64,000 nucleotides of DNA from Rhina ancylostomus. Taxonomy: Eukaryota. The stretch spans positions 60,819,695 to 60,883,694 of the forward strand of contig JARFYF010000063.1 of NCBI GenBank assembly GCA_030265395.1, in the 5' to 3' direction. The position numbers and the translations under genes are program-made. Positions within the stretch are counted from its first letter, which is position 1; each line of letters starts with the position of its first letter. Under the pieces are notes generated by a model, which searched no databases, was not told where the DNA came from, and worked only from the letters and a program-made list of their open reading frames with translations. Shown piece after piece: positions 13,762 to 50,014 of this stretch.

Positions 13762-14560
13762 CCTGAGCTAGTCCCATTTGCCTGCATTTGGCCCATATCA
13801 CTCTAAACCTTTCCTATTTGTGTATCTGTCCAAATGTCTTTAAAGTGTTTTAATTGTACTTGCCTTGACCACATCGATGGCAGTTCATTCCATGTACCCA
13901 TCACCCACTGTGTGAAAACCTTGCTCTTCAGATCTTTAAGTATTTCCCCTTTCATTTTAAACCTATGCCTTCTCATATTAGATTCCCCTACCCTGGGAAA
14001 AAGACTGACTAATCCACCTTATCTATGCCCCTCATAATTTTGTAAACCTCAAGTCACCCATCAGTCACCTCTGCTCCAGGGAAAATAGTGGCAGCCAATC
14101 CATTCTCTCCTTGTGACTCAAGCCCTCCAGTCCTGCAACGTCATTGTGATTCTTTCTACTTAATCACATCCTTCCTACAGAATGCCAACCAGACCTGCAA
14201 ACAATACTCTAGGTGCAGTCTCACCAACATCATGTACAGCTGTAACAAGACATCCCAACTCTTGTACTCAGTGGCCCGACTGAAGGCCACCATGCCATAT
14301 GCTGCCATCACCACCCTGTGTCAGCTCCTTCAGGGAATTATGTACTTGTATCCCTAGGTCTTCTTGTTCAACAAGACTCCACTGGAAACTTCCCAAAATG
14401 CATCACCTCACACTTTTCTGAGATAAATTCCATCTGCCATTCCATTGCCTACTTTCCCAGTTGGTCAACATCCTGTTGTAATCTTGGATAACCTTCTTCA
14501 CTGTCTTCTACACCACAAATTTTGGTGTCATCTGCAAATTTGTTAATCATGTCACCTGTT
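13762..14560 (-). mobile_element. CR1 LINE 3' fragment
   Basis: KFADDTKICG...RLQQDVDQLGK RT motif and a typical CR1 3' region. Confidence 0.8.
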
Positions 14561-26683: not shown

Positions 26684-27373
26684 NNNNNNNNNNNNNNNNN
26701 NNNNNNNNNNNNNNNNNNNNNNNNNNNNNNNNNNNNNNNNNNNNNNNNNNNNNNNNNNNNNNNNNNNNNNNNNNNNNNNNNNNNNNNNNNNNNNNNNNNN
26801 NNNNNNNNNNNNNNNNNNNNNNNNNNNNNNNNNNNNNNNNNNNNNNNNNNNNNNNNNNNNNNNNNNNNNNNNNNNNNNNNNNNNNNNNNNNNNNNNNNNN
26901 NNNNNNNNNNNNNNNNNNNNNNNNNNNNNNNNNNNNNNNNNNNNNNNNNNNNNNNNNNNNNNNNNNNNNNNNNNNNNNNNNNNNNNNNNNNNNNNNNNNN
27001 NNNNNNNNNNNNNNNNNNNNNNNNNNNNNNNNNNNNNNNNNNNNNNNNNNNNNNNNNNNNNNNNNNNNNNNNNNNNNNNNNNNNNNNNNNNNNNNNNNNN
27101 NAGCGGGCGGTTGGAGGGGCGGGGGGAAGCTCTTTGGTGACGCCGCCAAGAACGAGCTCGAAAAAGGCGCCAACTGTGTTTACAGTGCGTTGGTGAGGGA
27201 TGTGACCAATCAGTGCTTTGCATCCCTTCCAGCGATTGGTGCCGCGGAGAAATATGTGTGTACTTCTCTCCCTGCCCTCCATTGGTCACGTTGGCCACAC
27301 ACCTTCCCATGCAGCCGCCCACCCCTCATGACCCTGGTACTTGTTTGTCAATTCGTCCAGCTTCGCGACCAAC

Positions 27374-27637
27374 CTTGAATCCGCTGCCTCCCGCCTCCTG
27401 GGGCTTCTGCGATCTGATTCTCTGTGGGCAGGGGTCGAGCGCCGAGGGTGGGGCGAAGCAGGTACATTTACAGTGCGGTCCTGAGCTGATGGTCTCCATC
27501 GTGTACGAGTCGTCCGAGCTGAGGGTTCCTCCCTCGATCCGGTGGCAGGCCTCCCGGCCCAGGGGTCTGAACACACATTTACAGCGGCAACCCGACCCCT
27601 CAGACACGGCTTTCAGTTTGTCATAGTCCCGTAGCAA
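27374..27637 (-). CDS. OLFML2B: OLFML2B-like coding exon 2 (Cys-rich N-terminal region)
   Basis: CAG acceptor, 264 nt, [31 protein letters not shown]...[23 protein letters not shown], matching the OLFML2 '[28 protein letters not shown]...CKCACVAPPSALNPC' motif. Donor AAG|GTTGGT, phase 0. Confidence 0.93.
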
Positions 27638-28212
27638 CTGGAGGCAAGCGAAGAGCAAGTCAGTGAGTAAGGGACACGTAGAAATATTAAATATATAACC
27701 GTAATAATGACTGGGTTACTAAGTCCCTATAGTATATATTGTCAGCTCTGCACAGTTATTTAATGCAATAAGTGGTTCTTTGCATTTTTTGTTGTCTTTT
27801 AGGTTTCGGATTTTGCTTTTGGATAGACGTTCATTTGAAATATTTGCAGCTTTCCCTCGCTTGCATGGGTAACCGAGCCCCCGCGAAAGTAAACTCGTGC
27901 ATCGGCACCTTTGAAATGAAGACGCAGCACCCGGGGACAGTGTTAAGGTTCTAAGGGACAAGAGGTGCGCGTCTCCGAAATACAAACTTGGCAATGGGTG
28001 TTCGGAATGGCTTTTTTACTTAAACATTAAAACGGCACAGTGCTGCTGCACGAAAACTCAGCGTTGCAACTCTCCCACATAATCGGTAAGTTTGTTTACA
28101 AATGTCTGACGCGCTCATATCATTTATCTCCGTGCAACGGACCAAACCTGAAACCGTCCCAGTTCCGTTCGCACCCCCTTTACCTTCGTTATCGTCAGAG
28201 TGCTAACCTTAC

Positions 28213-28383
28213 CTCTGACAGCGTGTTGTCCTGCCTCTCGGGTTGACTGGCGGTTGTCCCGGTTTGAGTCTCATCCTTCGATTCCTCCCAAGCATCTGGC
28301 GTCGGCTTGGGAGATTTCCCGGTGAGGTTGCGGAACCCGCTGCACAGAACGAAGCCCAAGGCGAAGACTGCTCCCAACAGCAT
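28213..28383 (-). CDS. OLFML2B: Olfactomedin-like 2 (OLFML2B-like) coding exon 1, with signal peptide
   Basis: ATG in good Kozak context (GAAGATG). 57 codons MLLGAVFALGFVLCSGFR...QDNTLSE with a hydrophobic N-terminus. The end resembles OLFML2B 'NQENVLSQ'. Donor GAG|GTAAGG, phase 0. Confidence 0.85.
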
Positions 28384-31079
28384 CTTCGCCGGCTCCTTGC
28401 CCCTCGCCCTCTCCCAAGAGGAGTCAGACTGCTCGAAGCGATGGCAGGATTTGTCAGATCTGGCTGTCAGTTACCAGCAATTGCAGGAAGCGGGTGCGGA
28501 ATTTCCCCTCTCCCAAATCAGCAAAATCAAGGCAACGACTCACAACTGAGAGAGTTGGCTCTTTTCCAGCAAAGTGAGGGGGGGGTGCACAATAACGGGC
28601 TGCCCCTCACATCAAGACCCTATGGGGAGAGAGAGGGAGCGCTCACTTTCAGTTTGCGACTGATCTGGGTATCTCGTTGTTTGCAGCCAAGTGGCTGAAT
28701 GGAGTGAGGGGAAACTAGGTGGAGTTTAGAATCGGCAGTCAGCTGGAGGGGTTGCGTGAGATGAGGAAGGCGGGGTTGGCCAGAGTCTTCACAGCCTTTC
28801 TGACTAAAATATAGAACCAGAGAAGAGAGGGTCATGAAACCAAGGATCATGTCTCACTCACAACCTGGCAACATTCAGAACTCACACGCCGACAGAAACT
28901 CCACCCCTGTCGAAATTAATCCGTGAACTCACCCGAGGAAAAAATTCTCATTTTTCCTTTCTCGTTTTCCCTCAGATGGACGAGCATATTTTTCGACGTA
29001 CTGTAATGGCTTTTAATTCTCTTGCTCAACGTTTTAACTGTGTTTGAAATGTTAAAAAGGTTTCAATTGGGTAGCGACAGTGGCCAATCAAGAATGAAGG
29101 GCGACAGTCTTGAAAACAGACCTTGGTGCTCAAGGAAGAAATTAGGAGAGAGCTTGAAATTTTCTCCCACAGTGTTCTTGGAATTATTTTAGGTTTTAAC
29201 GCGCAGGACAAGGTGATTTTGTTGATTGAGAATACTAAGGACATCCAGCTATGATGGGTAAATGTAACTGAGATACAGTACTCACAAAATTTCGTAAGTA
29301 TCAAGACAAGCACTTGAATAACCAAAGCAAAGAAGGCTACACACTAAGTGTTGGTAAATGGGTTTAGGATAAAGAGTCTGTATGGACATGGACCAAAGGA
29401 CCTGTTTCTTTGCTGCATGATTTAATGACAATCTTATCGAATAGTGGTGCAAGTTCAAGGGATGTTATTGCCCATTTTTTCACATTAAAACTTTGAAATA
29501 TTTAGGTGAAAATAGTATTTTAAGTTAGCTTTATGTTGAACGATTGTCTTCCATTTGTATTNNNNNNNNNNNNNNNNNNNNNNNNNNNNNNTTTGTTTTA
29601 GCATTCAATAAATCTTCCAAAGATCTACAAATGCTTGATGCATAGCAACAAAAGCTAGTTTTGGGAAGTAGATTGTGCTTAGTTGAATCAACTTCACAAA
29701 AGCCAGGTAAATGCTGAAAATCCTTTGGAAATATGCACATATCAAAAAAGAATGGGAAGCTGAAAATGTGCTGCACTTTGATTCTGTAATCTGTTAGGAT
29801 CCAAGATGACCAGAATATATTGAGTTTTATGTTCCAGTTGTACCATTGTGAAAGCACGTTGCACAATATCTGGGAGCTCCCTTACAGAGATGGCATGATC
29901 TCACTGAGTCTGCTGGTGATCACCTCCTGCAGGCCAATTACTGAGCAGCACCCCTCAGAGATTGAGTTGTGGGGCTGGGTTGGGTGGACACTGCAGATTT
30001 CCTCCTCATCTGACTCTGGAAATAACTTGTCCGAGGAAACAGAGGAGCCCCATTTGGTTAGCTGAACACTGCCACTAACACTGAACTGTCCTACACAAAT
30101 TAAGTAGATTCCCAGAGTGTGCTGAGTTGGTTGCTCTCAATTAAGACTGCAATGGGAACCTACTATTGGTCTGGCCAAGACAAATGGCAAAATCAACCAA
30201 GGATACCATCTGCTATTCAATCCATTGCCTCTGTTCAGCAACCACCTTTTTGCTTAACAACAGTCCATAGTTGTGACCCAAACTGCATCCAATTGGAATA
30301 AGTAGAGAATACTGACAAAAGTCATCTGCAGACCATCATTTCCATTGCTTTGCTTTTTCACACCTCAGATTTTGCAGAGTAATTAATAGATGTTAATTGC
30401 TATGAGAAAATAATTACTCCTTTATCACTGTCTGAAGTATATTTCCCAGGTAACAGGAGATCATTTGGTATCTTTTAAATCTTTCTTTCTTACATAACGT
30501 CAAATGGGGGAGCCCATCACTTCATTCTGATTGGTTCAATTGGTAGTCTCTAATTTCCAGAGCAAAGGAATTTCTGTCAAGTCTTATACAGTCCTCATTC
30601 AGGCCTTTCTCATTCCAACATAAGGAACAGCTGGGACTTTCAAAATTAAATGCTGGGCATTTGTTGAACATTGCAATAAGATGACAGTTTCAAGCCAATA
30701 TTTTAATTAACATGGAAGTTATTCAAGAACATTAAATTGATTGTGATATAAACATTGAAAGGACCGACAAACTGGTTGTACAGTGAGCTCTTAGTGGCCT
30801 TGTTAAAACAAATTGAATTTAGAAAACATTGATACATTTCCATTAAATTACATTCCAAGAAACATAGAAAACATCTACTCCTATTGGATTTGCATTTACA
30901 GGCAGATGATTGTATTTACAATCACTTTTCTACATCATGTTGTCAAACTAAATTATTTTCAGACATAAGTTAGTAACAAGAGGTCAAATCACACAGCTTA
31001 CAGAAACACAGCTTGTGTAGTGTATTAAGATGGACACCATATTGCATTTTATTGGGTTAAATCAAGGGTAATGAAGAAA

Positions 31080-38320: not shown

Positions 38321-38809
38321 GAGAAAAGATATTCTTCTTAGCAAAAGCAACTTATGAGATCACTCCCCAATTGTTCCAATCCCCCAAAGTACCCATTTCA
38401 AATTCCCAGTTTAAGTATACCAATTTCCCAAATGCCAATTTCTCTCCGAAACATGGGAACCTCAAATCTGTAAGAGAGACACTCACATTTCTTTCACCTT
38501 AACCTGGATTCCACATGGTGAATTTCATTATCAATGACTGTCTTCAATGAGAGGTGATTTCCAGGAAATGGCAGATGGTCCACATTTTTCAGGGTCTCAT
38601 GGATCTTCTTGGTCAGGTGCTGGTGTTGCACAGCAAAGATTAGTCAACCTTTGTTTTGCAGATGTCAAATGTAGTGCCTGTTCTGTCACATGTGCACCTG
38701 AACCCACAGCCACCTTTGCAGACATAAGCTCAGTCTTCTGGAGAGTGAACCCACGGAAACCCACCATCTGGCCTGGATTGTGTCCCCAGCCACGTCCTTA
38801 GATTTTGCA

Positions 38810-39735
38810 TAGATCAGCTGGTGGAGGTATTTGCATACATTTTTAACCTCTCCCTGCTTCAACCTGAGGTTTTCACCTGGTTTAAGATGACCAATATTAC
38901 CCCAGTACCTAAAAAAACAAGGTAACGTGCTTTAATGACTACCATCCGGTGGCTCTGACATCCACCATCGTGAAGTGCTTCAAGAGGCACACATCATCTC
39001 CAGCCTCCCAGACAATCTCGATCCACTGCAATTTGCCTGCCACTGAAACAGGTATACGGTGGGTGCCATCTTCCTAGCCCGAAACTCCTCTCTGGAGCAT
39101 CTGGACAGTAAAGACATCTACATTAGACTCATTTATTGACTACTGCTCCACCTTCAATACTAGAATTCAAAGCAAACTCATCCTCAATCTCCTGGACCTG
39201 GGAATCAATGCCTCCCTTTGCAGCTGGATCTTTGACTTCCTGATCAACTGCAATCAGTAAAGAAAGGCAGCAACTCTTTTGCCAAGATTATCCTCAACAC
39301 TGGTGCCCCACAAGGCTGTGTCCTCAGCCCTCTACTCTACTCCCTATACACTCACCAATGCATGGCCAGATAATGCCCTAACTCCATCAACAAGTTTGTA
39401 GATGATCCCATCACAGTGGGCTGTATCTCAAATAACAATGAGTCAATGTACAGGAAGGAGATAGAGAGCCTAGTGATAGGGTGTCATGACATCAACCTTT
39501 CCCTCAATGTCAGAAAAACAAAAGAACTGGTCATTGACTTCAGGAAGGGGGCTGGTGCACACCCTTTTGCTTATGTCAATGGTGCTGAGGTCGAGAGGGT
39601 TGAGAGTTTCAAATTGCTGGGACTGAATATCACATAGCCTGTCCTGATCCAACCATGTGGATGCCATAGCCAAGAAAGCTCACCAGCGCCTCTAATTCCC
39701 CAGGAGGCTAAAAAGATTTGGCATGTCCCCTTTGA
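38810..39735 (+). mobile_element. Rex/Babar-type LINE RT fragment
   Basis: 'LNDYHPVALTS', '[19 protein letters not shown]', 'KFVDD', 'KTKELVIDFRK'. Confidence 0.85.
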
Positions 39736-40145
39736 ATCTTTCCCCTCTCACCTTAAACCTCTGCCCGATAGTTCTTGATTCCCCAGCCAAAGGTAAAAGA
39801 CTTTGCAAAAAGTGTGCATTCACCCTATCTATGCCACTCATGATTTTATACACCTCTATAGATCACCCCTCAGTCTCCTATGCTTGAAGGAATAAAGTCC
39901 TAGCCTGCCCAACCTCTCTCCGTAACTCAATCCCTTGAGTCCTGGCAACATCCTTTTATAGATCTTTACTGCATTCTTTCCAGCTTAATGGTACCTTTCC
40001 TATTAGCAGGATGACCAAAACAGAACACAATACTCCAAGTGGGGCCTCACCAACATCTTGCACAACTGCAACATAACATCCCAACTTCTATACTCAATAC
40101 CCTGACAGATGAAGGTCAGCATGCCAGAAGTTTTCACCACCCTGT
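39735..40145 (-). mobile_element. CR1 LINE fragment
   Basis: 'GIEYRSWDVMLQLCKMLVRPHLEYCVLFWS'. Confidence 0.8.
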
Positions 40146-41340: not shown

Positions 41341-42409
41341 TGGAATCAGCAGCAGAATGAAAGCAGCAACCTAGCCAATCACAGGTCGCAGCCTTCACCT
41401 CTATTTGCTGGATTTCATACCATTGTGCTGTCACTGGCTAAAATTAAGCTAATCAACATGCTCAGAGAAACTGAAGTTTTCCACAGAACCTTTGTCATAA
41501 CCCCTTGAATGGAGTTACAGCATTCTCATATTTGTATGGGTTACCCTACAGATTAGGGTGAACAGGTAATGTGACAGTGTGCACAGCTCCACTGTTTAAA
41601 GGATGACATTGATGGATTTTTGAGTTGGATTCACAATAGTTGGAGAAGAAAATAGATTATTAAAGTGTCAGCTCCACTTCACTTCAGTGATCTATCACCC
41701 AGTCATGCAGGGCGCCCAAGGACATCATATTCCTTTCTCATTTGAGGTAAATGTCTGCTGTGGTCAGGAGGAAGCTGGTGCCCCGCTCTTGGATTCAGTG
41801 CCTCAAGCAATTTAATAATCTCATTAAATCTGGAAAAGTGAGGCAAGCACAATGTTCACTTGTATCCTAAACCTGCCCTCTTTACTCCATTCCAGTGCAT
41901 CACATCATCACCCCTCGTATTCCCGTGTGTCCAGTCAGCCTTGCCTTTATGTGAAGTCATGCTTCTCAAAGTCACTTTCAGCAAATTTCCTCCATCCGTA
42001 CTTGCAGCGGATGCACCCTCACTCTCAGTCAGCTTGGAGAGAGTACAGACACCCGGGAGAAGCAGAAACCAATGATAACGTGTCCAGTCATCTTGCAACT
42101 CTCAGGTATGGAGATGGGAAGTCCTGGAGAAAAATGGCAAGATGACACCCACGGCATCAAAGTTGAGGAGATGGGGGCTCAATGACAGATTTATGGGTCA
42201 ATGGGGGCCCAGTGATGGACTTTGATTTCATTCAGCCAAGAATGTGAAGTCAGCAGTGAATGAAAAATAACCATCATGATAAACAACCTGAAGTAATGAT
42301 GCTTTGGCAGTTCAGTACCATAAAGCCTTCACTGCCCCATAGAATAAAAGCTCCTCGCTAAAGGGTGCTCACTTTAAGGGTGAACCGTCACGGAAGTTAC
42401 TCAGCTTCA

Positions 42410-43250
42410 GGTGGTGATGAGTCAGCTTACCGGAGCGAGATGGGACATCTTGTTGAGTGGTGTACAACAACCTCTCACTCAGCATCAGTAAAACTAAGGA
42501 GCTGATGTTGACTTCAGGAAGGAGAAGGAGGGCGGACATGCACCAGTCTACACTGGGGGATCAGTGATGGAGAGAGTCAACAGCTTTAAGTTCCTGGGCG
42601 TTAACATATTGGATGACCTGTCCTGGGCCCAGTGAATAGATACAACCAAAAGGAAAGCACGCCAGAATCTTTCTTAGGAGGTTAAGGAGGTTCAACTTGT
42701 CACTGAACACTCCAACAAACTTCTACAGATGCACTGTTGAAAGTATCCTGACTGGTTGCATCATGGCCTGGTAAAGCAATTCGAATGTGCAGGAACATAA
42801 GAAGCTGCGGAGACTAGTAGACTCAGCCCAGTACATCACGGGCACTTCCCTCCCCACCATCGGTAGTATCCACAGGAGGCACTGCCCCAAGAAGCCAACC
42901 TCCATCATCAAAGATCCCCACCATCCAGGCCATGCCATCTTTTCCCAGCTACCATCAGGCAGGAGGTATAGAAGTCTGAAGTCCCACTCCACCAGGTTCA
43001 AGAGCTACTTCCATTAACCACATTCCACACCATCAGCTACTTCCTGTCAACCATTCAGTTCTTTAACCAACCGGCAAAACCTAATCACCACTACATTTTA
43101 GCAGCACTCTGGTCACTTTGCACTAAAATGGACTTCTTTTTTGTTCTGCTTGTGTTTTTTTTCTGGTAAAAACTACGTATAATTTATGTTTAATTTATGT
43201 TATTCTTGTGAATGCTGCTTACGTCATGCCATGTGCCTGTGATGCTGCTG
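42410..43250 (+). mobile_element. Rex/Babar-type LINE 3' fragment
   Basis: 'FYRCTVESILTGCI.AW' and 'IIKDPHHPGHAIFSQLPSGRRYRSLK'. Confidence 0.85.
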
Positions 43251-43909
43251 CTCTACCCTGGAGTCTTTAACAAACAAAGTACTAAGGGGGCAACAGCAAA
43301 GAATGTGTGAGGTTCAAACAGGGATCTTATCAGCAGTTTGTACATTTGCAGAGAGATAGAAAGAGCCTCTCTTCAGCATTGGGATGTTGCAGGTTGTTGC
43401 AATGGAAAGTGCAGCTAACCATGGTGAGCATCAAATCCATCACTCACACATGTTTGCAGACCCTCTCCAAGGTACTGCACACAAGGACTGCCAGCTTGAC
43501 TAGGTTAGCTGATACATTGCTCAGTGCCCCAATAATCTGCAGTCACTCACTGCCACCAGAGAAGTGCAGGACAACCATAAAAGGGTTAAGAGTTTGAGAG
43601 GGCACAGGAGGTGGGGAATCTGATCAGAGTTACTTGGGTACTTTTCCTCATTCATCACCCCTCCATATTTTGCTCAGTGTTCAGATAGATACAAACCCCT
43701 GCAAGACCCTCATGGGTTCCAAACAGGGAGAGTGAAAGGCACTACAGCTCCTGCAGTGGAGTAGGGATCTAAGCAGTCTGACTCTCCCTCTCTGCTTAAT
43801 CCACAAGGATTAATCCGTTTAACATTTGGTTTTAGTTAAAATTTTAACTGGGGGAGCTGACATGACTTTCTTGACATGGTTGGGATGTGCTGCCCAGAGA
43901 TAATCCAAA

Positions 43910-44140
43910 ATCTTTTTCATGCACAGGGTGGTGAGTACAGGGTGGAACGAGCTGCCGGAGGAGGTGGTTGAGGCAGGTACAATGGTATCATTTAAGAAGC
44001 ACTTAGATAAGTACATGCAGGGTGGGTCTCTGAGGGATTTGGGCTGAACGCAGGAAATTGGGACTAGATGGGTGGGCACCGTGGTCGGCATGGACTTGTT
44101 GGGCCGAAGGGCCTGTATCCGTGCAATATGACTATCTGAT
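43910..44140 (+). mobile_element. CR1 LINE 3' end
   Basis: 'HRVVS..WNELPEEVVEAGT.VSFKKHLDKYM' plus the GGGCCGAAGGGCCTGT 3' UTR. Confidence 0.8.
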
Positions 44141-44149
44141 CAAACTGCT

Positions 44150-44515
44150 CCTGGACCCTTGTGGTAATCATCATTTGTATAGGCTTCTCTTCAAATTCTA
44201 AACAAGAAATGACGTTCACGTGAGCTGGGACCTCGAAAAATACCTCTTCTGGTTGGCAGTAAATAGTACATCCCCATTTGCAAAGGCTACCCTTTCCCAA
44301 CAGTTTCAATGGTAAAGTGGGAATGAGTGGTGATCGCTCGGGAGCCCGATAGCGATGGGTAAAGGATTTAATTGAGGAGTATTATCTATCTCTACCACTA
44401 AGCATTGCTGTCCTTATAGCGGCGCATTAGGTAACTCATCTTGCCTAATAGTTGAAACAGAGGCTCCGGCATCTGTTAAACATTCACGTCTTTTCCTTGT
44501 ACTTGTCCTTTCATA
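44150..44515 (-). mobile_element. ERV aspartic protease remnant
   Basis: Reads GQVQGKDV/CLTDAGASVSTI...VVEIDNTPQLNPL / LPLKLLGKGSLCKWGCTIYCQPEEVFFEVP, i.e. D(T)GA and LLGRD-like motifs of retropepsins. Same strand as, and downstream of, gag. Confidence 0.75.
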
Positions 44516-44534
44516 GAAAGTCTGTCATTTTGCA

Positions 44535-44880
44535 CTCGAACTCAGGGAAAAAGAGAATCTGTAACCTGTGGAAGAAGGGACTGTCACCCCATGAAAAGTA
44601 CAAGGATGTTAGGTTATGTAGAGAGAAAGTTAGAAAGACGAAGGCACAGGTGGAACTAAATCTGACCACTGCCATAAAAGACAATAAAAAGTACTTTTAC
44701 AAACGCAGTAGCAATAGAAGGAGGGCCAAGGAGAACCTCCATCCTCTACTGGATAGTAGCGGAAACCTAGTGACTGAGGATAAGGAAAAGGCTGAGGTAC
44801 TTAACAACTTTTTGCCTCAGTCTTTAATGGCAACCTCTCTTTCCACACCTCTCAAGTGTTTGGACCTCAAGGGTGGAGCT
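44535..44880 (+). mobile_element. CR1 LINE ORF2 fragment of avian-like sequence type
   Basis: KKRICNLWKKG...YKDVRLCREKVRKTKAQVELNLTTAIKDNKKYFYK...RRAKENLHPLLDSSGNLVTEDKEKAEVLNNF/ASVFNGNLSFHTSQVFGPQG. This is CR1 endonuclease-RT linker sequence. Confidence 0.8.
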
Positions 44881-44965
44881 GATCCAAGTAGGACACGCTT
44901 TAGGCAGAGGTCATAATTGTTTATGAAGGGCCGCTCATCAAAAAATACAGAGAACTTGTATCAAG

Positions 44966-45026
44966 CCATTATATTATAGGTCAGGGAACCATTCACCAGG
45001 GAACCATTATATTATAGGTCAGGGAA
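44966..45026. repeat. 23-bp direct repeat
   Basis: CCATTATATTATAGGTCAGGGAA occurs twice, 38 bp apart. Confidence 0.8.
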
Positions 45027-45189
45027 TAATCAGTGCAGATGAACCTGCAAAGTGGACTTAATGCATTGTCTGGACTCTCCCAGACAATTATTGGTGCACT
45101 ATATTGGTGTGAAAGACTGTAGTGTGGAGAAGATGACTTGGTTTGTAGTTGGAGAATTTTATTTTTCAGACTTGTATGAAAGATATGGT

Positions 45190-45392
45190 GTATCAAGAAG
45201 GCAGCATCCATCACTAATGATTCTCACCATCCGGGACATGCCTTCTTCACATTACTACCATTGGAGAGGAGGTACAGAAGCCTGAAGACCCACACTCAAT
45301 GATTTAGGAACAGCTTCTTCCCCTCCAGCATCAGATTTCTGAACAGTCCATGAGCCCATGAACACGACCTTGTTATCCCTTTGTGACTTGTA
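45190..45392 (+). mobile_element. Rex/Babar LINE 3' fragment inside the ERV
   Basis: 'KKAASI..DSHHPGHAFFTLLPL.RRYRSLKTHT'. Confidence 0.75.
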
Positions 45393-45494
45393 NNNNNNNN
45401 NNNNNNNNNNNNNNNNNNNNNNNNNNNNNNNNNNNNNNNNNNNNNNNNNNNNNNNNNNNNNNNNNNNNNNNNNNNNNNNNNNNNNNNNNNNNGG

Positions 45495-46752
45495 GGGGGG
45501 GGGGGGGCAATGGGAGGGAGGTGAACCTGATGCTTGTAGAGTTATTATTTGGACTTTTTGGACTATTATCAACTTTTGTGCTTGGACTTCAGATTTTTGC
45601 TATCTGATAGACTGGCAATGGTTTGCTTGCATCAGAAGTTCCTCCAGGGGTTTTGTCTGCCATCCTATGCAGTTTGTTTTTAACTGCTTTTGGATCGGGG
45701 GCAGCAGACCATTTACAAAGGCAGCTCCCACGGCCTGTGGGCCATTTTCGCCGGGTTCCCTAATGCCGGAATGCCCCTGGAACAACTATCATTCTTCCTC
45801 GGAATTCGGCATGAACCTCCTGTTGTTTTGCTGCCACTATCTTGCTCCCGTCAGGTCAGGTGGGCACGCCCATGGGATAGTGGACAAGAGTTCATCGAGC
45901 TCTCTGCCAATTGCTACTCTTCGCCCTGGCTCTATGTCGGGTCATTCTGCAGCTTCGAAAAGTCTCTTCCGTGGTTCTTCCAGTAACACAGCCCTTCAGA
46001 ATTGTTTACAATCGGCCCAAGTAGGGTGTAACATTGTTTGCTTATTTCTAATTCTCGGGCAAATGCTTCAGGGTGCTCCCTGAAGGATGGAAAATGTTTC
46101 ACCATTTGGCACAGATCTGTAGGTATCCAGGAAACATGGACATCCATAAGGTTACCATCTGCGCTAGGCAGCCGTCTCAAAGGGGCCTGGATCATGAGGT
46201 CACTGGAGTAACTTCAGGTCTGTGAGGATACCGGAGAGGAATCTGTGCTTCCCCCCCCCCCCCTCCCCGCCTTACCGAGTCCTGGACAAACCTGTGAACT
46301 ACTTCCACTGGCACTTGTGGAGGAATCTTCTTCTTTCTGTCCCTCGGTCCTCCTTCCTCCGCCGCCTTGTCAAAGGTGGACGGAGGGATAGGTGCTCAGT
46401 CAAGTAAATCGACCTGGGACTGGGATTCACCTGCCCCTTCCTTTTCTTGTACCAGTTGGGGATAAAGCGGGTGCAGTAAGGATCGCGGGCTGACTTAAGG
46501 NNNNNNNNNNTTTTCTTTCAACTTCCCTTTCTAACTTCGTATGCATATCCTGGAGCCTCTTCAAATTTGACTCCACTTTTCCTTTTGAAGTTTCGCTGTA
46601 CCGATCATAGTCGGCATGCCGCTGCCTCTGGCCGACCCTTGAACCTGGGGATTCAAGCTATCCCCTCGAGTGCACCATAACATCCATTTCAAAAGATCCT
46701 TCGGGAAATTGCGACCTAGGTTCGTCCCACGTTCCCCTATTCCAGTCATTTA
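45495..46752 (-). mobile_element. Endogenous retrovirus gag remnant (class I, gamma/epsilon-like)
   Basis: MA-like 'W...FPEGSF'. CA N-terminus 'QAPLRR...VHVSWIPTDLCQMVKHFPSFREHPEAF'. MHR-like 'D.SKIVAAKQQEVHAEFRGRMIVV/FQGHSG...AAFVNGLLPPIQKQLKTNCIGWQTKPLEELLMQANH'. Frameshifts and stops present. Confidence 0.8.
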
Positions 46753-47423: not shown

Positions 47424-47970
47424 TCAGGTTTATCACTGACTTATATACTGTATTCCGTGAAATTTCCTGTTTTGCAGTAACAGTACAGTGCAAAGACATA
47501 AAATTACTATAAATTACAAAATAAATAAATCATGCAAAAAAAGGAATAAAGGAATAGTGTTTATGGGTTCATGGACAGTTCAGAAATCTGATGGCAGAGG
47601 GGAAGTTGTTCCTAAATCATCCAGTGTGGGTCTTCAGGCTCCTGTCCCTCCTCCCCGATGGTAGTAACGAGAAGAGGGCATGTCCTGGATAGTGAGGACC
47701 CTTGGTGATGGATGCTGCCTTCTTGAGGCACCGCCTCTTGAAGATGTCCTCGATGGTTGGGAGGGTTGTGCCCGTGATGGTGCTGGCTGAGTCTACAACC
47801 CCCTGCAGCCTCTTGTGATCCTGCACATTGGAGCCTCCATAAAAGGCGGTGATGCAACCAATCAGAGAGGTCCCCACCATACACCTATTGAAATTTGCAA
47901 AAGTCTTTAGTGACATATCAAATCTCCTCAAACTCCTAATGAGGTAGAGCCACTAGCATGCCTTCTTCAT
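47424..47970 (-). mobile_element. Rex/Babar LINE 3' fragment
   Basis: ORF 47617-47931 'NFNRCMVG..LIGCITAFYG...GHALFSLLPSGRR.RSLKTHT'. Confidence 0.85.
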
Positions 47971-48482: not shown

Positions 48483-49615
48483 TGGTAATTGGTGGTTGTT
48501 TTGTTCTTGTCACATGTACCAAGGTTCAGTGGAAAAACTTTGTTTTGAATGCCATCATATAGATCATTTCATACATGGGTGAGTTGAGGTAGTACAAAGG
48601 GAAGAACCATAAAAATAATGCAGAATGTAGTGTTACAGTTCCAGAGAAAGTGCAGTGTGGGTAGATTGAAAGATCAAGGGTTCATCTTTATCATACAAGA
48701 GGTCCATTCAAAAGTCTTATAACAGCGGATAGAAGCTGTCATTGAGCCTGGTGGTGTGTGTTTTCAAGCTTTTGTATCTTCTACCCAATGGAAGGGAGGG
48801 AGAAGAGAGAATGACCAAGGTGGAAGGGGTCCTTATTTACATTGACTGCTTTACTGAGGCAGAAGGAAGTGTAGACTGTAAGAGAGGGGAGGCTGGTTTT
48901 CATGATAGACTGGGCTGTGTCCACAACTCTCTGCAATTACTTGTGGTCTTGAGCAGAGCAGTTGCCATAGCAAGCTGTAATGCATCTATATAAGATGCTT
49001 TCTATGGTGAATCTACAAAAATTGGTGAAGGTCATCAGGGACATACGGAATTTCCATAGCCTTCTGAGGAAGTAGAGGTGCTGGTGAGCTTCCTTGACCA
49101 TAGGATCTATATGGTTGGACCAGGAATAGTTATTGGTGATAGTTACACCTAGGAACATCAAGCTATCAACCATCTCCACCTCAGCACCATTGATACATAC
49201 AGGGGCACATACTCCATCCCGCTTCCTGAAGTCAATGACCAGCTCTTTCATTTTGCTGACATTGAGGGAAAGGTTGTTGAATTCACACCATGCCACTTGG
49301 CTCTCTCTCTCTTTCCTGTACTCCATCTCGTTATTGTTTGAGATGCAGCCCACTATGGTGGTGTCACTGTGAACTTGCGGAGTTAGAGCAGAATCTGGCC
49401 ACACAGTTGTGAGTGTACAGGGAGTAAAGTAGGAGGCTGAGGTTGCAGCCTTGTGGGGCACCAGTGTTGAGGATAATGGTGGCAGAGGTGTTTCCGCCCA
49501 TCCTTACTGTTTGCGGTCTGTTCATCAGGAAGTCAAGGAACCAGTTGCAGAGGAAAGTGCTGAGTCCGAGGTCTAGAAGTTTGCAGGTGAGTTTGTTTGG
49601 AATTGTGGTATTGAA
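48483..49615 (-). mobile_element. Rex/Babar LINE RT to 3' end
   Basis: ORF 48937-49461 'DTTIVGCISNN...KMKELVIDFRK...HQHLYFLRRL...ESIL..CITACYGN' and an ACCAATTACCA tail. Confidence 0.85.
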
Positions 49616-50014
49616 ATATAAGGCATTCTGTTCAACCTCTTCAGTGAAATAGATGAATCAATGAGAGAAGTAGAATGCATTAATACCACCATGTCCAGCA
49701 GGCAGCTAATATTATTACAAGATACAGCAAGTATCTACCATCACCTGCCTCATATTTATGTTCGGATGTGTCATTGAAACGCAAATCTGTTCACTATCTC
49801 TGCAGGCTGCAGCCAAAGAAATGGAACTACAGACAGATAGGCTAATGACCAACCCTGACATTTTATCAACCTGCTGGCAAGGGAAATGCTGTTGCAATTT
49901 GGAAACTTGTTTTCNNNNNNNNNNNNNNNNNNNNNNNNNNNNNNNNNNNNNNNNNNNNNNNNNNNNNNNNNNNNNNNNNNNNNNNNNNNNNNNNNNNNNN
50001 NNNNNNNNNNNNNN

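Follow-up and report, generated by a model that had tools for sequence, protein, structure and literature searches.

Avian-lineage CR1 fragment with marks of two bird subfamilies in a contig of the ray Rhina ancylostomus, probably of technical origin

A piece of CR1 ORF2 linker, about 340 bases long, is situated at positions 44530–44872 (plus strand) of the 64-kb stretch of Rhina ancylostomus DNA analysed here (the window), and its relatives are the CR1 copies of birds. The piece is a true oddity of sequence, the origin of which is probably technical. The best explanation, which we hold with modest confidence, is that old bird genomic DNA was built into a gap-rich draft and is not in the germline of this animal. 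Judged by its residues, the piece also combines two bird CR1 subfamilies in a mosaic, the join lying in a block common to both; this is a new point, and a small one for CR1 evolution, whichever origin holds. A first-pass annotation of the window had reported the piece; the mosaic, the gap before the putative gag and the putative decayed reverse transcriptase start beyond a nested host CR1 are additions to it. The features of the region are as follows.

38740-39740, 42390-43060, 45180-45392, 47530-47950 and 48690-49620: cluster of Rex1-type copies, 72–83 % alike
43300..43905, minus strand: putative start of a decayed ERV reverse transcriptase (by motif), which runs on past the nested host CR1
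43907..44140, plus strand: host-type CR1 3′ end, 45–47 % aa identity to the bird CR1 C-terminus and 67 % nt identity to the host copy at 13768-13918
44150..44528, minus strand: putative ERV protease (by motif), with one stop and at least two frameshifts
44530..44805, plus strand: ORF2 linker of an avian CR1, from the stretch separating endonuclease and reverse transcriptase, type A, 5′-truncated, with stork, crane and penguin proteins as the subfamily match
44806..44872, plus strand: tail belonging to another avian CR1 subfamily, type B, matched by P0086 (ibis), P0002 (stork) and P0216 (godwit), with no reverse transcriptase, 3′ UTR or tail
44873..45179, no strand assigned: 307 bp of no assigned family, possibly bird flank or host DNA
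45180..45392, plus strand: 5′-truncated 3′ end of a host Rex1-type LINE, 82–83 % nt identity to 47540-47732 and 76 % to 42888-42987
45393..45492, no strand: unsized gap of 100 N, followed by a run of 15 G
45510..46752, minus strand: putative ERV gag (by motif), with stops, frameshifts and a 10-N gap

Rex1 is the family name that we presume for the host LINE end at 45180..45392.

Homology of the CR1 piece begins at approximately 44529–44535 and ends at approximately 44872. An open stretch of 91 codons without a stop occupies 44539-44811 (plus strand), and the peptide quoted in the first-pass annotation was found there. The 'ASVFNGNLSFHTSQVFGPQG' tail lies in another frame, entered by a 1-nt slip at a run of T at approximately 44811, with 21 further codons beyond the slip. 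A second 1-nt slip is present near 44548, and one codon is absent relative to most relatives, for a total of two frameshifts and one codon deletion. In a search against 5.8 billion proteins the best single-stretch E value was 7e–33, and a search without a word index returned 1428 representatives at E≤0.001; the homology of the piece to CR1 is far beyond chance.

When the piece was compared with longer proteins, 91 of 147 candidates matched, with aa identities of 51–76 %. Names could be attached to 86 of these, and all 86 derive from birds, the named sources being stork, crane, penguins, crow, kittiwake and ibis. Thirty further proteins, 29 of them drawn from the best 150 of the 1428 matches at E≤0.001, were named where possible; the 17 named comprise 13 birds, 4 turtles and 0 chondrichthyans, in protein collections that under-sample shark and ray CR1 ORFs and in which a low-copy ray family would be invisible. 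Identity was 62–76 % aa to the best named bird matches, versus 45–51 % to the four named turtle proteins. In these collections the closest bird match stands at 76 % aa, and a near-identical bird protein was not among the matches. The piece is a single copy within the 64-kb window.

A tree of 71 rows and 89 columns, midpoint-rooted, was drawn from 127 segments of full span found in 242 proteins; the near-identical stork rows were for the most part left out, no chondrichthyan row was present, and the host copy at 52.1 kb was too decayed for inclusion. It is apparent that, among these rows, the piece falls with the bird type-A copies in a group of 46 (97/94), and that a branch with support of 99/90 separates the turtle rows. 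Finer placement within the avian clade (87/88) is not firm. The end branch of the piece, 0.37, is similar to those of other decayed bird copies in the tree. One protein that is crane by name, P0236, groups with turtle CR1 (96/90), which points either to a contaminated record or to a CR1 lineage of great age. The matches and the tree support, as far as sequence comparison reaches, the assignment of the piece to the avian CR1 lineage; the first-pass description of it as an avian-type CR1 ORF2 piece of some 345 bp thus holds, and the phylogeny that it had called for places the piece with bird type-A copies. Bird CR1 proteins align with the other CR1 copies of the window at only ~25–50 % identity, and the host CR1 at ~52.1 kb gave no match to them at E<0.01. 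The CR1 type at 44530-44872 therefore differs from that at 52.1 kb, as had also been noted at first pass.

We take type A to be perhaps CR1-E-like and type B perhaps CR1-Y/W-like. Against majority sequences from bird proteins, 12 of type A and 6 of type B, the diagnostic sites in codons 1–70 are A at 20, B at 4 and neither at 10, and those in codons 71–88 are A at 1, B at 2 and neither at 2. Of the 16 variable residues in the tail beyond the slip, the type-B protein P0086 shares 9; none of 78 type-A proteins shares more than 3, and none of 28 other proteins more than 6. That score was reached by 0 of 100000 shuffles, P0086 having been picked as the best of 107. A slip at this T-run recurs in several type-B copies; the tail of P0241, itself slipped, agrees at 12 of 20. 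The combination of a type-A body with a type-B tail was absent among the 240 proteins checked; P0103 was considered as a type-A protein with a type-B tail and rejected as a false positive of a loose pattern. Recombination of two bird copies, a recombinant subfamily as yet unsampled and template switching of technical origin would fit the mosaic alike. A term search of the available text of PMC2817409 found no mention of CR1 chimeras.

The only DNA relative obtained for the piece is L001:1-540, an entire 540-bp bird CR1 contig, pigeon-like in our estimation, which occurs at a coverage of 0.15 in the Nocardia nova assembly that serves as the GTDB representative and is a contaminant there. Identity to L001, which belongs to another subfamily, is 72 % over 239 nt, with 22, 16 and 46 differences at the three codon positions, pS of 0.74, pN of 0.19 and pN/pS of 0.26 (0.17–0.39). 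Table S5 of PMC13343379, in the portion available, gives Ka of 0.11–0.15 and Ks of 0.45–0.64 for four bird–bird CR1 pairs; since such pairs already have Ka and Ks of this kind, the ratio is not assignable to the branch of the window. The path includes a bird lineage, and the low pN/pS was therefore rejected as a demonstration that an active element had been transferred. Read as neutral decay, the 64/88 identity of the piece corresponds to ~0.14–0.16 changes per site (0.10–0.24), and at a decay of 0.15–0.2 the absence of stops is unremarkable (P 0.26–0.37). If rates such as the shark-like 7e–10 per generation given in the accessible part of PMC10587355 hold, an elasmobranch could hardly have built up decay of this extent in the time since the origin of crown birds.

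The sequence around the piece points to another kind of genome. Cross-matching Rex1-type copies make up at least 3.6 % of the called bases in the window, and the Rex1 share is <0.02 % in birds and 6–9 % in two rays in the survey data available from PMC13343379. Such a load would exclude a bird and fits a batoid genome. An open stretch at 63597-63863 (minus strand) has zinc knuckles and matches PF00098 at E 0.0035, below the curated cut-off; it is probably a LINE ORF1. Two further open stretches, 27329-27715 and 28198-28470 (minus strand), resemble, in our reading, the initial coding exons of a gene for olfactomedin-like 2, and neither gave a usable Pfam or Atlas match.

The piece lies in the contig at 29592-45392 (15.8 kb, the longest of the window), 520 bp from its end, and there are 13 N gaps in the window. 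The contig is continuous here, with no N between the piece and the adjoining host repeats, in agreement with the first-pass annotation. The CR1 5′ end directly adjoins the putative protease without filler. On the other side, a 3′ hairpin and microsatellite tail were not found, nor anything CR1-like in 44873-45392, and they could sit in the 100-N gap. Likewise, no flanking direct repeat that might be a target-site duplication was found in 44100-45400, the far junction being perhaps within the gap. The 307-bp piece contains an exact 23-nt direct duplication (44966-44988 / 45004-45026), interleaved with a 12-nt one, and has no match in Pfam, Rfam, plasmids, phages or elsewhere in the window. Its minus-strand composition differs from that of the putative gag (p 1.6e–5) and not from that of the putative protease (p 0.11); the idea that it is the 3′ end of gag was rejected on this composition and on the absence of a zinc knuckle. 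The first-pass location 'between gag and protease' is correct on the putative protease side, while the putative gag lies beyond the 307 bp, the Rex1-type end and the 100-N gap.

The putative gag, protease and reverse transcriptase motifs at 43300-46752 look epsilon-like to us (class I ERV). No significant Pfam, PDB, homolog or Atlas match was obtained for these short and decayed pieces. Pfam on six frames of 40–49.9 kb returned only PF09004, in a Rex1-type copy, and nothing on the individual ERV pieces; homolog searches with one gag piece and one protease piece gave no match, a PDB search with the putative reverse transcriptase start in three frames gave chance matches only, and the protease piece had no usable match in Atlas. 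Paired LTRs were not among the self-matches of the window, and a 594-N gap lies beyond the putative gag, on the 5′ side of the ERV. Of the earlier statement that the CR1 lies within an ERV in opposite orientation, the orientation stands (CR1 on the plus strand, putative ERV on the minus strand), while the identity of the ERV is a putative one, read from its motifs. Provided that the motif reading holds, the putative ERV would be resident in the ray genome, since a host CR1 end is nested inside it. The protease and the CR1 piece as a single bird fragment were rejected, because by the same reading the element appears to run past that nested CR1.

Stops number 0 in 112 codons of the insert and 10 in 365 codons of the provirus (Fisher p 0.13), where the ERV frames were chosen by eye and the off-frame stop density is 13 in 318. 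By likelihood, equal decay of the two has p 0.14–0.17, or 0.43 without one stretch. The point estimates of decay, 0.24–0.36 per site for the provirus and 0.14–0.16 for the insert, differ ~2-fold, a difference that is not significant, and the proposition that the insert is clearly younger than the provirus was dropped as unproven on these values.

Several of these observations argue for foreign bird DNA in the assembly. Only bird CR1 is close to the piece (86 of 86 named matches, with a further 13 birds, 4 turtles and 0 chondrichthyans among the additional proteins). In contrast to the host LINE ends nearby, the piece lacks both a reverse transcriptase end and a tail; its change of subfamily falls within a common block, as in template-switch or assembly joins; and it sits near a contig end in a window with many gaps. 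Its decay would be more easily earned in a bird than at a slow elasmobranch rate, an argument from age, and L001 demonstrates that bird CR1 does get into foreign assemblies. Finally, CR1 is seldom transferred horizontally and birds seldom take part in such transfers, as judged from the available text of two surveys (PMC13343379, PMC7070016). In this scheme a CR1 fossil would have decayed and recombined in a bird, perhaps together with the 307-bp flank, and bird DNA would then have entered the contig as a chimeric library molecule, by gap filling or through a misjoin near the contig end. Most of the CR1 decay would thus have happened in a bird, and the joins on either side of the piece would be technical. 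The possibility of a chimeric or contaminated contig, already raised at first pass, is accordingly supported and ranked first; other misjoins have a slim chance. Against an assembly artefact stands the lack of any N at either junction, so that two seamless chimeric joins are required. The piece is also antisense in the ERV, like the two adjacent host LINE ends, and has a clean 5′ junction, as in a 5′-truncated insertion. Host repeats are 67–83 % alike, and decay of the size seen in the piece therefore does occur in this genome, which likewise counts against an artefact, as does a closest bird match of only 76 % aa among proteins.

The same gap-free junctions, 5′ truncation inside ORF2 and orientation as in nested host LINEs would be expected of entry into the germline without a retroviral carrier, a course of events that we regard as rather unlikely. 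Either an avian-lineage (recombinant) CR1 in a batoid ancestor would have retrotransposed into a resident dead ERV, its 3′ part later being deleted or hidden by the gap, or a scrap of bird DNA would have been captured at a DNA break. The pN/pS of 0.26 relative to L001 indicates selection somewhere on the path, although it is not assignable to the branch of the window, for the reason given above. No member of the 242 proteins has more than 7 of the 24 private residues of the piece, which fits an unsampled lineage, but neutral decay gives private residues equally well. Rex1 and L2 elements have been exchanged between rays and teleosts, according to the accessible sections of PMC13343379; those sections also report, for 101 species including rays, that avian and chondrichthyan CR1 are each a supported monophyletic group, which speaks against such entry. 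Avian CR1 is monophyletic in the part of an amniote survey available (PMC8665684). The slow host clock (PMC10587355, as cited above in part) is a further point against it, and the single copy in 64 kb is weak evidence either way.

That a retrovirus captured host CR1 and crossed vertebrate classes, as the first-pass annotation had proposed, found no positive support and is improbable. The CR1 would have been picked up in a bird by a defective, helper-packaged genome, which then entered the DNA of a ray ancestor with the CR1 on board. Capture during reverse transcription may leave an internal fragment without a tail at a gag–pro boundary, the data are compatible with equal decay in the insert and the provirus (p 0.14–0.43), and host switches between water and land and retrovirus transfers from birds are known from the available portions of PMC6001957 and PMC12287698. 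Set against this, the epsilon-like clade, which the element resembles in its motifs, is reported from jawed vertebrates almost throughout, with birds as the exception (PMC6001957, available text), and the named bird-sourced jumps in the accessible part of PMC12287698 lead to carnivores, turtles and monotremes, not fish. The provirus is also about twice as decayed by the point estimates, though not significantly so; a host CR1 is nested in it; the insert blocks the reading from gag to pro; and the junction on the gag side is outside the visible sequence. A native chondrichthyan CR1 subfamily that merely resembles bird CR1 is scarcely credible: shark and ray CR1 ORFs are, it is true, under-sampled in protein collections, but in the tree the piece groups with type-A bird copies (97/94), separate from those of turtles (99/90), has 72 % nt identity to L001, and bears the marks of two separate bird subfamilies.

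Taken as a whole, the proposition that a recombinant avian CR1, with a type-A body and a type-B tail (a combination absent from the 242 relatives), crossed into an elasmobranch germline and gave rise to copies there, including the one in a dead ERV, with a retrovirus as carrier in its boldest form, is a tentative one that we consider doubtful. If true, it would be a first: a CR1 transfer from an amniote to a cartilaginous fish, which is not in the surveys as far as their available text goes (PMC13343379, PMC7070016). It would break the pattern of near-absent sideways movement of CR1 and of birds as rare partners in transposon transfer, and would date a contact between a bird lineage and the ray germline. 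The accessible text of PMC13343379 reports only three horizontal transfers of CR1, none within amniotes. In that of PMC7070016, mammals or birds take part in <3 % of 975 transfers, and transfer groups with <5 copies were dropped as a guard against contamination. The literature searched, where subscription journals are thinly covered, yielded no account of bird CR1 from any shark or ray. If the preferred reading of foreign bird DNA is correct, the assembly carries embedded foreign DNA from the same kingdom, and this bears on every claim of transfer based on this assembly; DNA of this kind is under-reported by contamination screens, according to the part of PMC10898089 available.

The piece may be compared with several known systems. 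The vertebrate CR1-group LINE transfers of PMC13343379 and PMC7070016 would likewise, if the present case is real, involve CR1 crossing a deep host split; those described in the available text are, however, multi-copy and mostly of Rex1 or L2 among fishes, with none between birds and elasmobranchs. The epsilon-like class I ERVs (clade Mu in the accessible part of PMC6001957) appear to share with the putative element the gag-pro-pol order and the style of motif, whereas no LTR, integrase or env is visible here. Avian CR1 of type A (P0003, P0004 and P0092 of Mycteria, P0007 of Grus and the penguin protein P0005) resembles the piece in 64 of 88 aa of its majority and in clade; it is unlike the piece after the shared block (at most 3 of 16), and the piece differs in having no reverse transcriptase or 3′ end and in lying in a non-avian contig. 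Type B (P0086 of Theristicus, the second piece of P0002 of Mycteria, and P0216 of Limosa) has the tail residues and slip-prone T-run of the piece, but its majority matches only 49 of 88 aa in the upstream linker. With regard to contaminant contigs, L001 is a free contig of low coverage, whereas the piece in the window is embedded without Ns; the two are alike in being short stretches of bird CR1, from the same region of ORF2, in the assembly of an unrelated organism.
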